Shown here: positions 31,154 through 35,212 of the stretch, piece after piece
Layout of the letters: the number at the start of each line of letters is the position of its first letter
How positions within the stretch are numbered: the stretch's first letter is position 1
NCBI GenBank assembly: GCA_020053155.1
Contig: JAGVNS010000158.1
Location: 1 to 35,212 of the forward strand
Direction: 5' to 3'
DNA length: 35,212 nt
Origin: Nitrososphaerota archaeon
Lineage (GTDB): Archaea > Iainarchaeota > Iainarchaeia > Iainarchaeales > VGJJ01
Notes under the pieces: generated by a model
Database searches by the model: none
Told to the model about the DNA's origin: nothing
What the model saw: only the letters and a program-made list of their open reading frames with translations
Program-made: the position numbers and the translations under genes

Positions 31154-32305
31154 ATGACCGGGAACGTAACCATTGTGGGGGCAGGGTGTGCCGGACTTCG
31201 ATTGGCTCGCCGACTGGCCGAAAAAAGCGTCCAAGTGACGGTTTATGAGGACCACCCCCAAATTGGGATTCCCGAGCATTGTTCAGGCCTCATTTCCGCA
31301 CGCAACACCAAAGAATTGGGGTTTGATTTGAGGGAAAGTTTTACGAATGACATTTATGGGGCTAAACTATTTTCCCCCAACAATACCCAGTTGCGCATCG
31401 AAAGCAAAAAGCCCGTTGCGCACGTGATGGACCGAAGCACGTTCGACCAAACGCTTTACACAGAAGCCATTCACGCGGGGGCAAATGTTGAGTTAAGTAC
31501 CAGTGTAATTAATGTCAAAGGAAATACCCTCTTTACCCAATCGAAAGGAAAAGGGGGAATGAAGAAATCCGACATCATTGTGGCAGCAGACGGGGTCAAC
31601 TCTCACATTCGAAAAATGGTGGGAGTCGAAAGCAAGCCCGGGGATTTCATTCATTCGTACCAAGTAAAGGCAGCGGGGCATTTCGAACCCCATTTTGTTG
31701 AACTCTATTTCAGTGAAAAATTCGCCCCCCACTTTTTCGCGTGGGTGATTCCCGAAAACGAGGAGAGCGCCAAAGTGGGAATAGGGTGTAAAGTGGGAGT
31801 GAATCCCGCACACGCGTTTAACGCGTTTCTAAAAGAAAAACAGATTGACATTCACGTTAAAACAAGTAACTCCTTTCTCATTCCGTGCTCTCCTCCTATT
31901 CGGAAACTGTATTTTGACCCTATACTCCTGCTTGGGGATTCGGCCTACCAAAACAAAGCGACGAGTGGAGGGGGAATCATAATGAATTGCAAAGCAGCCG
32001 ACATTTTAGGAGAGGTCATTACAGAACATATTCACAACGAAGCCCCTTTGGATGCGTATGAGAAAAAAATGGAGCCCATTTTTAGAGAACTGGAACTGCA
32101 TTACAAAATTCACCAATACCAAAGCCGGCTGGGCGATGAAGACATAAATCGATTTTTTCTCAAACTAAAGGATGCAGGCATTGAGCAGTTTCTTTCGAAT
32201 GAGGGGGATATGGATGAACCCTCTCGATTTGTGGGAAAACTCATCTCCAACCCCCGCATGATTTCACTCCTCCCTGAAGCGGTGAAGTTTTGGTTCACCA
32301 AATAG
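31154..32305 (+). CDS. Geranylgeranyl reductase family FAD-dependent oxidoreductase
   Basis: 'VTIVGAGCAGLRLARRLA...VTVYE' (the GxGxxG motif), 'EHCSGLIS', 'IVAADGVNSHIRK' and 'LLLGDSAYQNKATSGGGI'. Confidence 0.85.
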   Translation: MTGNVTIVGAGCAGLRLARRLAEKSVQVTVYEDHPQIGIPEHCSGLISARNTKELGFDLRESFTNDIYGAKLFSPNNTQLRIESKKPVAHVMDRSTFDQTLYTEAIHAGANVELSTSVINVKGNTLFTQSKGKGGMKKSDIIVAADGVNSHIRKMVGVESKPGDFIHSYQVKAAGHFEPHFVELYFSEKFAPHFFAWVIPENEESAKVGIGCKVGVNPAHAFNAFLKEKQIDIHVKTSNSFLIPCSPPIRKLYFDPILLLGDSAYQNKATSGGGIIMNCKAADILGEVITEHIHNEAPLDAYEKKMEPIFRELELHYKIHQYQSRLGDEDINRFFLKLKDAGIEQFLSNEGDMDEPSRFVGKLISNPRMISLLPEAVKFWFTK

Positions 32306-32330: not shown

Positions 32331-32361
32331 CTCGGGGGGTTATCCTTCGGAAACCCCCGGG
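32331..32361 (+). other. GC-rich stem-loop downstream of the reductase gene
   Basis: CTCGGGGG (32331..32338) pairs with CCCCCGGG (54..61, one G-U pair). An inner 3-bp stem TCC/GGA sits around a UUC loop. The structure starts 26 nt after the stop at 32305. Confidence 0.3.
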
Positions 32362-32373
32362 CCAATATTTTGA

Positions 32374-32404
32374 GCACATTCTTGGACGCCTCATTCTTTT
32401 TCAT
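32374..32404 (+). repeat. 31-nt imperfect direct repeat, copy A (GCACATTCTTGGACGCCTCATTCTTTTTCAT)
   Basis: It matches copy B at 33758..33788 in 26 of 31 positions. The first 14 nt and the last 8 nt are identical. Confidence 0.7.
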
Positions 32405-32460
32405 TCCATTTGAATAAAATGGGAGTTTATAGACATTTATGCAGCAGCATAGCCCTTTGG

Positions 32461-33750
32461 ATGGTTCGTGCTAATGGATTCAGTGCCTTTGCTCTTCCAC
32501 TAACAATAATGCTTATAAGGATAATGGCTATTATCCCTACTATGATTATTCCTAGGCCGATGGATGTAAAAAAAATAGTTGATTCCAAAAAATGGGTGTT
32601 AGTGTATGGAAGGCGAAAAACAGGAAAAACTTTTTTAGTACAGCATTTTGTTCGGTTTGACGAATATTTTTTCGTCAAAAATAGCGGGAGCATCCTGACT
32701 AAAAAAAGCGACTCAATTACTTATGAAACATTTATGGAAATTTTTAGAAGAACCATTGAAGAAAATAAAATCGTGGTGGTGGATGAGTTTCATCGCTTAG
32801 GGAACGATTTTTTTGATTACCTACATTTCATGAAAAAAAATGGCAAGGTAATCCTCATCTCATCGACTCTTTTTCTTTCTAAAAAACTCATTTCCGAAAA
32901 GTCGGCGTTGCTCGGTTTATTTGCCGAGGTTCCAATTGGAATCATCAATTTAGGCGATGTTTTAAACGCACTAAAAAAAAGTGATAGCTCCCTAAAAGAA
33001 CAATTAGAGCTGGCGGTATTGCTGCGTGAACCTATTGCTATCGATTATTTTGATCCAATGATGCATGTTCGAAAGACGATGGCTAAAATAATATTGGGTT
33101 CATCCAAGACCATTCCAGCGCTAATTGGAGAAATTTTTGTAGAAGAAGAAAGGGAAATCTCTGGGGTGTATGAGGGAATTCTTCGAGCCATTGCCTCTGG
33201 AAAAGTGGGCTCGGGGGAAATAACTTCTTATCTTTTCTCCAAAAAGTTAATCAAAAAAGAAGACTCGAGCATGATTCAGCAATATTTGAATAATCTTACA
33301 TCCTTTGGCATCATTCGTAAAATAGGTGTTTTTGACAAGAGGCGATTCATTTACAAGTTGACGTCTCCTCTGGCGCGAATATACTATTATGCGGATGAAA
33401 AATACAATTTATCGGAACGAATTGTTTCGGAAAAAGAGATGGCAACTATTATTGATGAGCTGATGCCAAAAATCGTGGAAGATGCCGTGAGGGAATTCCT
33501 GTCGGAAAAGAACGGTCTTATTGAGAACGTAATTGATGCCGCTGATTTTGAAGTGGATGGGGTGCTCCTCAAATTCAAGAAGCCGGAAATAGCATTAGAG
33601 GTAAAATGGAAAAAACTCGGAGAAAAAGAAATACGCCAAATCGAAGAAAAACTAAACCAAATTCAAGTCAAGGAAAAAATACTATTTGTGCCGGATAAAA
33701 CAGGGATTAAGTCCACGCTTACAGTAATGGATGTGAGGGACCTGCACTAA
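32461..33750 (+). CDS. Archaeal ATPase family protein (P-loop ATPase + wHTH + DUF234/PD-(D/E)xK-like C-terminal domain)
   Basis: Walker A 'VYGRRKTGKT', Walker B 'IVVVDEFHRL', a wHTH-like 'GILRAIASGKVGSGEITSYL', and a C-terminal 'FEVDGVLL...IALEVKWKK' (D...ExK). The start is uncertain: TTG 32410, ATG 32419, ATG 32461 (about 31 nt after the TATA-like 'TTTATAGA') or ATG 32560. The frame is stop-free from 32410, which favours an early start and adds a hydrophobic N-terminal segment. Confidence 0.8.
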   Translation: MVRANGFSAFALPLTIMLIRIMAIIPTMIIPRPMDVKKIVDSKKWVLVYGRRKTGKTFLVQHFVRFDEYFFVKNSGSILTKKSDSITYETFMEIFRRTIEENKIVVVDEFHRLGNDFFDYLHFMKKNGKVILISSTLFLSKKLISEKSALLGLFAEVPIGIINLGDVLNALKKSDSSLKEQLELAVLLREPIAIDYFDPMMHVRKTMAKIILGSSKTIPALIGEIFVEEEREISGVYEGILRAIASGKVGSGEITSYLFSKKLIKKEDSSMIQQYLNNLTSFGIIRKIGVFDKRRFIYKLTSPLARIYYYADEKYNLSERIVSEKEMATIIDELMPKIVEDAVREFLSEKNGLIENVIDAADFEVDGVLLKFKKPEIALEVKWKKLGEKEIRQIEEKLNQIQVKEKILFVPDKTGIKSTLTVMDVRDLH

Positions 33751-33757
33751 TTTGAAC

Positions 33758-33788
33758 GCACATTCTTGGACACTTTTTCCTTTTTCAT
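33758..33788 (+). repeat. 31-nt imperfect direct repeat, copy B (GCACATTCTTGGACACTTTTTCCTTTTTCAT)
   Basis: See copy A. It lies between the ATPase stop (33750) and the aldehyde dehydrogenase stop (33800). Confidence 0.7.
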
Positions 33789-33799
33789 AAAAAAAATCT

Positions 33800-35212
33800 C
33801 TACGGTTTCCCAATAACGGTATAATGCCAGGGTTTTCTTATTTTTCCTGTTAAATCCACATATATGTGTTTGAGCTGGGTGTATTCTTCCAGTGCGTGTA
33901 TGCTCAAATCGTGCCCGAAGCCGGTTTGTTTGAATCCCCCATGGGGCATTTCTGAAACGAGGGGTCCGTGTTCATTTATCCACACTTCTCCAAAGTGCAG
34001 TTGGTTTGCGATTCGAAGGGCTTTCCGTCCGTCTTTTGTCCAAATGGAGGAAGCAAGGCCATATTTCACGTCGTTGGCTTTTTGAATGACCTCTTTTTGG
34101 GATGAAAATTTTAATACGCAGAAAACGGGACCAAAAATTTCCTTCTGGCACACATCGGCGTGCTGTTTTACGTTTGTGAGGATGGTAATGGGAACAAACC
34201 ACCCGCTTTTGGGGACTGTACTTTGGTACGCTATCCTAGCGCCTTGTTTGGGTGCATTGCGAATAAACCCCATGACTCGTTCATATTGTTCCTTACTCAC
34301 TACCGGACCCAAATCCGTATTTTTATCGAGTGGGTTTCCCATGCGCACGGTTTTGCAGCGTTCCATTAGGGCCCTTACAAATTTATCGTGAATTTTTTCA
34401 TGCACATACAACCGCGTCGCGGCCGTACAATCTTGCCCGCTATTAATGAGTCCTCCAATTAGCGCTCCCTGCGCGGACTCTTCCACATTCGCATCTTCCA
34501 ACACAATGAATGGGGCTTTTCCCCCTAACTCAAAATGGGTTTTCTTCACGTTTACGGATGCGAGTTGTTGGATTCTTTTTCCGGTTTCGGTATTTCCCGT
34601 GAGGGCAATCATGTCTACATCCTCGCTTTTGGCAAGGGTCTCTCCCACTTCTTTTCCACTTCCAGTTACTACATTCAACACTCCTTTTGGGAATCCTATT
34701 TTCTCCGAGGCAGCGGCCATTTCAAGCGTGGTGATTGGTGTCACACTCGCGGGTTTGAGAATGAGCACGTTTCCTGCTGCCAATGCTGGGCCCATTTTCC
34801 AACATGCCATAGAGAAGGGATAATTCCAGGGAGTAATCGCCGCAACAACCCCAATGGGCTCGCGTTTCAAAATGGAAAATCCCGCGGGGATGTGTTCTCC
34901 TTTCTCATCAAACGCTGCATAATTTCCCGCCGTTTGACTTTGCATGGTGCGCGCGGCGCCCGCAAAAAAATGAATGTTGTCAATTCCAAATGGGATGTCC
35001 CCATCGTGGGCCATTTTCCAGCTCTTTCCCTGATTCATACATTCGAGTTTGGACAATTCTTCACTTTTTTTTTGTAATTCATCGGCGAGCTTGAATAGCC
35101 ACCCTGCGCGTTCTCCGGGTGTCATGCGGGGCCACGCTTTGGAGTCAAACGCTTTTCGAGCCGCTTCAGGGCAGGCGGCTCCAAAAACTTGGAGTCCTCG
35201 AATGTCTTCTTC
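33800..35212 (-). CDS. NAD(P)+-dependent aldehyde dehydrogenase (5' end outside the window)
   Basis: 'FELGGKAPFIV' (catalytic Glu), 'NSGQDCTAATR' (catalytic Cys), 'WNYPF' and 'PHGGFKQTGFG'. The frame stays open upstream of the track's ATG at 35125 to the window edge (...EEDIRGLQVFGAACPEAARKAFDSKAWPRMTPGERA...), so the real start lies beyond 35212. Confidence 0.9.
   Translation of the reverse strand, partial: EEDIRGLQVFGAACPEAARKAFDSKAWPRMTPGERAGWLFKLADELQKKSEELSKLECMNQGKSWKMAHDGDIPFGIDNIHFFAGAARTMQSQTAGNYAAFDEKGEHIPAGFSILKREPIGVVAAITPWNYPFSMACWKMGPALAAGNVLILKPASVTPITTLEMAAASEKIGFPKGVLNVVTGSGKEVGETLAKSEDVDMIALTGNTETGKRIQQLASVNVKKTHFELGGKAPFIVLEDANVEESAQGALIGGLINSGQDCTAATRLYVHEKIHDKFVRALMERCKTVRMGNPLDKNTDLGPVVSKEQYERVMGFIRNAPKQGARIAYQSTVPKSGWFVPITILTNVKQHADVCQKEIFGPVFCVLKFSSQKEVIQKANDVKYGLASSIWTKDGRKALRIANQLHFGEVWINEHGPLVSEMPHGGFKQTGFGHDLSIHALEEYTQLKHIYVDLTGKIRKPWHYTVIGKP

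Follow-up and report, generated by a model that had tools for sequence, protein, structure and literature searches.

The 35,212-nt window analysed here is an entire contig (JAGVNS010000158.1) from the genome (1.06 Mb, 86% complete) of an archaeon of the DPANN type. Close to its right end, a gene for an AAA+ ATPase (positions 32542 to 33750, plus strand) lies between two imperfect copies of a 31-nt direct repeat. Our overall explanation, to which we give a probability of about 0.7, is that a one-gene cassette inserted at the 5' end of a host gene and left that end duplicated on both sides, and that the body of the host gene was later deleted. That the repeat is the footprint of this insertion we consider highly probable, and the same repeat-gene-repeat architecture is found, by alignment of flanks, around homologous genes in other archaea.

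A short direct repeat brackets one AT-rich gene

The repeat is a 31-mer starting GCACATTCTTGGAC. Copy A, to the left and upstream of the ATPase gene, occupies positions 32374 to 32404, and copy B, to the right and 7 nt past the ATPase stop, positions 33758 to 33788 (direct repeat, plus-strand coordinates), which gives a start-to-start spacing of 1384 nt. The copies are identical at 26 of 31 positions, including the first 14 and the last 8 nt, and enclose a single long open reading frame. Both the repeat, with its coordinates and identity, and the one gene within it had been described in the original prediction, made from the sequence without database searches. All five mismatches lie in the central 9 nt; if they were randomly spread over the 31 positions, the probability of this would be 126/169911 by our own arithmetic. 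Such clustering fits a conserved or crossover core better than uniform decay. The 14-nt core has no further occurrence in the window (expectation at two or fewer mismatches, 0.27 matches), and a chance origin of the pair was ruled out by this expectation together with the 26/31 identity. On the minus strand, copy B opens a 13-codon frame (MKKEKVSKNVRSN, then a stop) and copy A a frame of 46 codons, close to the 45 or so estimated earlier. The AT-richness noticed in the gene holds for the whole interval: G+C is 0.34–0.41 between the copies compared with 0.42–0.52 outside, the genome mean being 0.47.

Related genomes retain the target gene

We compared the locus with the 16 other genomes of the genus (the congeners; G000 is the window's own genome). 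In three of them, G006, G013 and G002, three genes stand after the orthologous aldehyde dehydrogenase gene on its own strand; they encode a saccharopine-dehydrogenase-family protein (Sacchrp_dh) of 380–395 amino acids (aa), a second aldehyde dehydrogenase and an inositol-monophosphatase-family protein. In G006 and G013 this three-gene interval is followed by the convergent reductase gene. The 14-nt core lies within the first codons of the congeners' saccharopine-dehydrogenase-like gene, where it is read as S-K-N-V. Copy B aligns to the ATG and first ten codons of that gene, and the alignment takes in the native, T-rich upstream region. The G013 start codon stands 17 nt from the core, as in copy B, and the upstream T-run is kept. 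In the window, copy B still adjoins the native upstream region and the stop of the aldehyde dehydrogenase. By these alignments with G013, G002 and G006, copy B is shown to be the native 5' end of the saccharopine-dehydrogenase-like target gene, now lost, and the three congeners are shown to present the uninterrupted empty site with a single copy of the repeat.

The original prediction had named such an empty site as a check, with the reductase standing next to the aldehyde dehydrogenase. The single uninterrupted copy is there in all three congeners; in G006 and G013 the two genes are separated by three others. None of those three was found anywhere in the window's genome, and an exact look-up of the reductase protein in other assemblies gave no match.

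Copy A is organised like the 5' end of the congeners' gene: its minus strand reads ATG, 17 nt and then the 14-nt core. The next six minus-strand nucleotides are TCAAAA, compared with CCAAAA in the congeners (5/6), and beyond them the similarity of copy A to the congeners ends before the reductase's terminator hairpin. A weak alignment points to a tentative extension of the repeat at 32355 to 32373 (plus strand), which may also be a remnant of target-gene codons 11–17. Its counterpart at copy B (33741 to 33757) is displaced by a 2-nt indel and runs over the final codon of the ATPase and the stop.

The ATPase gene is foreign to the genus

A profile search found no homologue of the ATPase in any of the 16 congeners. 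Elsewhere within the order, homologues are present in 7 of 120 other sampled genomes. The closest matches (76%, 75% and 69% identical) are all in other families, and their identities compare with 69–81% for vertically inherited neighbour genes within the genus. Woesearchaeota, Methanosarcinales, Thermoplasmata, Altarchaeum, Pacearchaeota and a single bacterial bin contain relatives with 52–68% identity, and the G+C content of the gene is about 0.37 against 0.47 for the genome. Judged by this distribution and composition, the gene is shown to be foreign to the genus and horizontally acquired. The congener alignments and the absence of the gene from the rest of the genus bear out the original idea of a single-gene cassette in the 5' end of a minus-strand gene. 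The target was not the small gene then imagined; it is a gene for 380–395 aa, now deleted.

The protein itself had been labelled a DUF234-type ATPase. Pfam gives AAA_14 instead (33.6 bits; cut-off 27), with no match to DUF4143 or DUF234, and an NCBIfam scan of the protein returned no match. In an alignment of 16 homologues (52–76% identity), the Walker A (GRRKTGKT) and Walker B (VVDEFH) motifs are invariant, as are residues D338, E352 and K354, which lie in a strand-strand-strand context typical of the PD-(D/E)xK fold. The C-terminal D338...E352-x-K354 has the spacing of a PD-(D/E)xK nuclease and is predicted to form a nuclease-like motif. With the Pfam match, the alignment and an AlphaFold model (pLDDT 84), the protein reads as an AAA+ ATPase with a winged helix and this C-terminal motif; the modelled fold matches Orc1/Cdc6, the Sulfolobus 'archaeal ATPase' SSO1545 and STAND ATPases. 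Fusions of ATPase, helix-turn-helix and nuclease have been surveyed as PD-(D/E)xK members of unknown function (PMC3424549) and classed as 'likely defence' (PMC4158269). PADLOC gave weak matches only, to the candidate systems PDC-S01 and PDC-S27 (E = 2e-7 to 3e-3). A defence role for the family would fit these candidate matches.

The start codon is likely ATG 32542 and not TTG 32410, since DNA similarity to the homologues sets in at 32508 and that ATG is preceded, at a distance of about 26 nt, by a TATA-like box. The predicted promoter region (32512 to 32541, plus strand) consists of this box (32512 to 32520) overlapping a 7-4-7 palindrome (32519 to 32536). The layout of box, palindrome and ATG, conserved at the DNA level, recurs 5' of homologues in unrelated hosts. 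Judged by this recurrence, the cassette brings its own promoter, which is probably autoregulated and, from the distance between box and ATG, probably gives a leaderless transcript. At three Saliniplasma-type loci (L065, L269 and L272), the box-palindrome promoter segment is itself the flanking repeat. The left inner part of the cassette (32405 to 32511, plus strand) is common neither to the nearest homologues nor to the congeners.

Flanking repeats recur around homologous genes

To cover the family, we took 19 loci from genomes and 80 from metagenomes, aligned the 450 nt upstream of each gene with the 450 nt downstream, and set the threshold at the 99th percentile of a null made of mismatched locus pairs. 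Direct repeats above this threshold flank the gene in 26 of the 82 testable homologous loci. Among loci with full flanks, 22 of 67 have repeats, compared with 5 of 92 control frames shifted by 1750 nt. The architecture of the window, repeat, gene and repeat, is by this test shown to recur around homologues. The repeats are 19–339 nt long and 72–100% identical, and they stand 1241–1886 nt apart from start to start with one gene enclosed. Their sequences differ at every site: they are unrelated between loci, not palindromic and without a dif-like dyad.

The repeats derive from the host. Some are 5' parts of genes (a DUF763 gene in Altarchaeum, a GT4 glycosyltransferase gene), others are 3' ends of genes or a tRNA; the 3' end of tRNA-Val(TAC) is the flanking repeat in two loci, L063 and L261. 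For the Altarchaeum insertion, a second empty site was found in a relative, G135, which has one copy of the gene start with its native upstream region and no ATPase; G133 contains a decayed ATPase remnant. In some members of the family the repeats are perfect (L278, 41 nt; L272, 21 nt). In several loci, L064 and L056 among them, a perfect block stands at one edge of a longer imperfect repeat; in L064, 24 perfect nt adjoin 30 nt with 6 mismatches.

No recognisable transposase (DDE, HUH, serine or tyrosine) was found in the cassette, whose gene gives only AAA-type matches in Pfam and nothing in NCBIfam, and there was no integrase among ten flanking genes scanned, in agreement with the original prediction. 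Terminal inverted repeats were sought at the inner ends of the 27 repeat-flanked loci, including the window, and none was found (best score 10.5; 99th percentile of the null 10.0). The family behaves like a one-gene mobile element without a recognisable integrase. A literature search, which was not exhaustive, found no published description of mobility or flanking target duplications for this ATPase family.

Several observations weigh against the insertion reading. The continuity of copy A with the target gene extends over 6–20 nt only; we attribute this thinness to deletion of the target gene body. Comparable short similarity exists beside copy B, where it overlaps ATPase codons. About two thirds of the homologous loci, including those of the three nearest relatives (G059, G107 and G098), have no detectable flanking repeat. 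Genomes usually hold one copy of the ATPase. G130 has two, but their identity is just 52% and no convincing flanking repeat was found at the second; nothing here points to recent transposition within a genome, which the G130 pair rules out.

The core of the repeat is a genus-wide motif

The window genome contains 6 exact and 7 one-mismatch copies of the 14-nt core, compared with 0 for a reversed control, and the core is the only complex, isolated 14-mer with such a copy number in that genome. The core is thus not unique to this locus. As a motif, GCACAWTCTTGGAC, it has 1–16 copies per ~1-Mb genome in 15 of the 16 congeners and occurs once in 14 other genera, the control always being 0. The 101 exact sites in the 17 genomes correspond to 43 non-orthologous loci, and the extended consensus adds T at −3, G at −2 and A at +14. 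Sites lie at 32374 to 32387 and 33758 to 33771 of the window and on contigs C4, C25, C28, C57, C90, C100, C104, C116 and others of G000. The original prediction had counted a core found throughout the genome as an argument against insertion. The core is indeed common, with its 43 loci, and this does not refute the insertion reading.

By strict gene calls, 21 of the loci are sense coding, 9 antisense coding and 13 outside genes. The sense bias is mild (21:9), 5 of 6 reading frames are used, and the motif is not enriched near gene starts (26% vs 19%, p = 0.18). Most sites are not common to G000 and the congener G015; where an orthologue in this comparison lacks the motif, the protein sequence differs over exactly those residues. 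At one site the exact motif is present in 13 of 17 genomes, with flanks that average about 55% pairwise identity; this is the only conservation figure we use, as conservation within orthologous sets is circular for sites picked by exact match. A protein motif was ruled out by the use of 5 of 6 frames and both strands and by sites mostly non-orthologous between G000 and G015, and complementarity to rRNA gave nothing notable. A literature search for the motif returned nothing relevant. By its placement, the motif is a signal at the nucleotide level. With its 43 independent loci, both inside and outside coding sequence, it constitutes a genome-level signal in a DPANN lineage, and one that can now be tested.

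Given so many copies, two of them might bracket the gene by coincidence, each having arisen independently of the other and of the arrival of the ATPase. The genome has 13 core copies at one mismatch or fewer, several of them intergenic or at gene starts, and close pairs of motifs are present in congeners. At about 10 copies per Mb, however, only some 6% of genomes should have two copies on one strand within 1.4 kb of each other (our own estimate). Both copies in the window, moreover, have an ATG at exactly 17 nt and a following AAAAAG, they bracket the region's only genus-foreign gene, and the flanking repeats of homologues elsewhere do not contain the motif at all. We consider such a coincidence very improbable.

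Several further observations concern the motif. In the complete genome G015 (L087–L139), 12 of 13 sites follow a two-domain strand pattern, on the plus strand from 165 to 715 kb and on the minus strand from 761 kb round to 50 kb, and an orc1/cdc6 gene lies at 246 kb. Cumulative GC skew in G015 falls monotonically round the chromosome, with no turning point and no origin indicated. The motif could conceivably be a replication-polar signal, the rough p of the strand pattern being about 0.04 and gene orientation being confounded with it. G107, a genome of another family with one of the two nearest homologues, has a single match to the motif (one mismatch; L043/L050:2611-2624) in its entire sequence. 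This match lies on the strand of the ATPase gene, 267 nt downstream of it, which hints at exchange with the window's genus.

One conserved locus (L069:1775-2945, found also in G013, G008, G010 and G007, L083–L086) contains a TFE-alpha gene, the motif, a tRNA and an AT-rich region with repeated GTAATTAC palindromes, followed by a PadR-like gene, an unassigned 197-aa gene and a tyrosine recombinase gene. The 197-aa gene contains a second, inverted copy of the motif, 1.14–1.16 kb from the first. Two sites in G000, in genes unrelated to each other, one PHP-domain-like (C4:5850-5885) and one AlkD-like (C100:278-313), have in common a 33-nt patch around the motif, RT[IF]LDTPV[AS]EL in protein, which suggests short-patch copying between motif sites.

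How the cassette may have integrated

We propose the following course of events. A cassette of ~1.35 kb, made up of the ATPase-nuclease gene and its own promoter, would have entered the saccharopine-dehydrogenase-like gene downstream of the aldehyde dehydrogenase, at codon 10–15. The ATG and first ten codons of the target (31 nt, possibly about 47) would have been left on both sides of the insert, copy B as an orphan on the native upstream region and copy A joined, at that time, to the body of the target. A later deletion would have taken ~3.3 kb, comprising the target body and the next two genes. The junction of this deletion would lie between copy A and a G+C-rich hairpin, read from the sequence, 3' of the reductase gene (32334 to 32359, plus strand).

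For the duplication itself, an att-like or Campbell-type route, rather than fresh duplication of the target, appears plausible to us at somewhat less than even odds. The cassette would have brought along a copy of the target's 5' end, acquired in an earlier host, and this would have recombined with its counterpart in the chromosome, the crossover falling in the longest identical block, which in the window would be the 14-nt genus motif. The recombinase could be the encoded ATPase-nuclease or a host function. A crossover in the genus motif would place the donor within or near the genus, although none of the 16 sampled congeners carries the gene. The att-like route fits the perfect edge blocks of L064 and L056, the targeting of tRNAs and gene ends, and arms that differ as orthologues do: outside the core, copies A and B differ at 5 of 17 positions, and copy B and its G013 orthologue at 4 of 17. 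The two cores are identical at 14 of 14 positions because the motif is conserved genus-wide.

Could the target end have been duplicated afresh? The encoded ATP-driven nuclease, or host repair, would then have made a long staggered break of variable length in the target, into which the cassette was joined; filling of the gaps would have given two copies identical at first, after which the arms would have decayed while selection kept the motif. ATP-dependent nucleases such as McrBC or the type I enzymes cut at variable distances, and the perfect repeats of L278 and L272 would be expected of a fresh copy. Selection, too, could explain the 14/14 identity of the cores, the motif being conserved independently at 43 loci of the genus. 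What makes this account rather unlikely in our view is the range of repeat lengths among related elements (19–339 nt), the perfect edge block with diverged arms in L064, which resembles a crossover core, and the divergence between the arms of A and B, about like that between copy B and the G013 orthologue. A transposase with a fixed stagger is excluded, because repeat length varies more than tenfold.

A different source of mobility would be a helper. The cassette would then have none of its own, being either what remains of a larger integrase-bearing element or an att-flanked passenger moved in trans by another element's integrase or by a host recombinase of the Xer type. Elements flanked by att sites and devoid of an integrase are known in bacteria, and tyrosine recombinase genes are present elsewhere in the window genome (contigs C7 and C68). 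Targeting of tRNAs and gene ends with att-like repeats is, moreover, a signature of integrase-mediated elements (PMC4158269). Set against this are a spacing that is consistently that of one gene (1.24–1.9 kb at 26 loci in unrelated hosts), the lack of an integrase among the ten flanking genes scanned, and repeats that differ from site to site without a dif-like dyad, so that many helpers would be needed. On balance we find a helper improbable.

The recombinase may be the AAA+ ATPase-winged helix-PD-(D/E)xK protein itself. We offer this as a possible, though doubtful, extension. The family, widespread in archaea, would then be a new class of one-gene integrative elements that insert at gene ends and tRNA genes, where they duplicate or replace the end and so let the host gene survive, and that may serve as defence genes as well.

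Neighbouring genes and other repeats

The left neighbour of the cassette (31154 to 32305, plus strand) is a host gene for a geranylgeranyl-reductase-like flavoprotein, with orthologues 69–81% identical in 15 of 16 congeners. The right neighbour (33800 to 35212, minus strand), truncated by the contig end, is the host aldehyde dehydrogenase gene, and its orthologues in G006 and G013, with the same downstream junction, are 79–81% identical. The reductase orthologue of G005 (C41:5554-8325; L023, L037) is split, within one open frame of 933 aa, by an insert of ~1.6 kb, possibly an intein or an extra domain.

At eight contig ends of G000 (C24, C48, C65, C75, C88, C107, C160 and C161) the assembly is broken by a repeat that is present in many copies, has subterminal hairpins and looks like the end of an IS200/IS605-type element. 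It contains TTCTTGGAC, which is also part of the 14-nt motif. A tie between the motif and this repeat was ruled out, the flanks of the insertions being unrelated, and the common string is probably due to chance. G000 also has a family of ~55-nt repeats, with 11–13 copies, that contains AAACGGGGCTTTCCCACTAAAATTTTACC.

Comparison with known systems

In domain order, ATPase, winged helix and putative restriction-fold nuclease, and in patchy distribution, the cassette protein resembles the AAA_14/DUF4143 (COG1373), Arch_ATPase/DUF234 (COG1672) and arCOG03166 families. Members of these families have been described as defence or plasmid genes, and the papers we found report neither flanking duplications nor autonomous mobility for them. 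Tn7-like transposons, with the PD-(D/E)xK nuclease TnsA and the AAA+ ATPase TnsC, likewise combine mobile DNA with a restriction-fold nuclease and an AAA+ regulator. Tn7 has, in addition, a DDE transposase, terminal inverted repeats and a fixed 5-bp duplication, none of which was seen at the ATPase cassette. The ATPase cassettes differ in the same way from classical transposons and insertion sequences, having no transposase, no terminal inverted repeats and no duplication of fixed length (19–339 nt).

Similar in organisation are the CIMEs, the Xer-dependent IMEX elements and the pdif modules of Acinetobacter plasmids, which are small, sometimes single-gene units between recombination sites with the recombinase encoded elsewhere. 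Those systems use one conserved, dif-like dyad site, whereas the ATPase cassettes are flanked by a different piece of host gene at each site, with no common sequence or dyad.

There is a likeness, too, to archaeal integrase-mediated elements (proviruses and plasmids of the SSV and pTN3 types and cryptic integrated elements). These insert at tRNA 3' ends or gene ends between att direct repeats of variable length, supply a replacement gene end, are usually present in single copy and spread horizontally. Of the hallmarks of integrative elements, the ATPase cassettes have the direct repeats at host gene or tRNA ends and the single-copy empty sites, and lack an internal integrase gene. Known integrase-mediated elements measure several kb or more, and the integrase is what defines them, whereas the cassette is one 1.2-kb gene with its promoter and no tyrosine or serine recombinase gene. 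Since archaeal integrated elements are found by that very gene, units of 1.3–1.5 kb that hold only an ATPase-nuclease would be invisible to such searches; yet hosts as far apart as DPANN archaea, Methanosarcinales, Thermoplasmata and Altarchaeum have units of this kind, with host gene ends duplicated in att-like fashion on either side. Should the ATPase protein drive its own insertion, mobile DNA would gain a new recombination chemistry, and single genes of the defence type a way to spread. Otherwise, these loci would show single genes mobilised in trans across the archaea.

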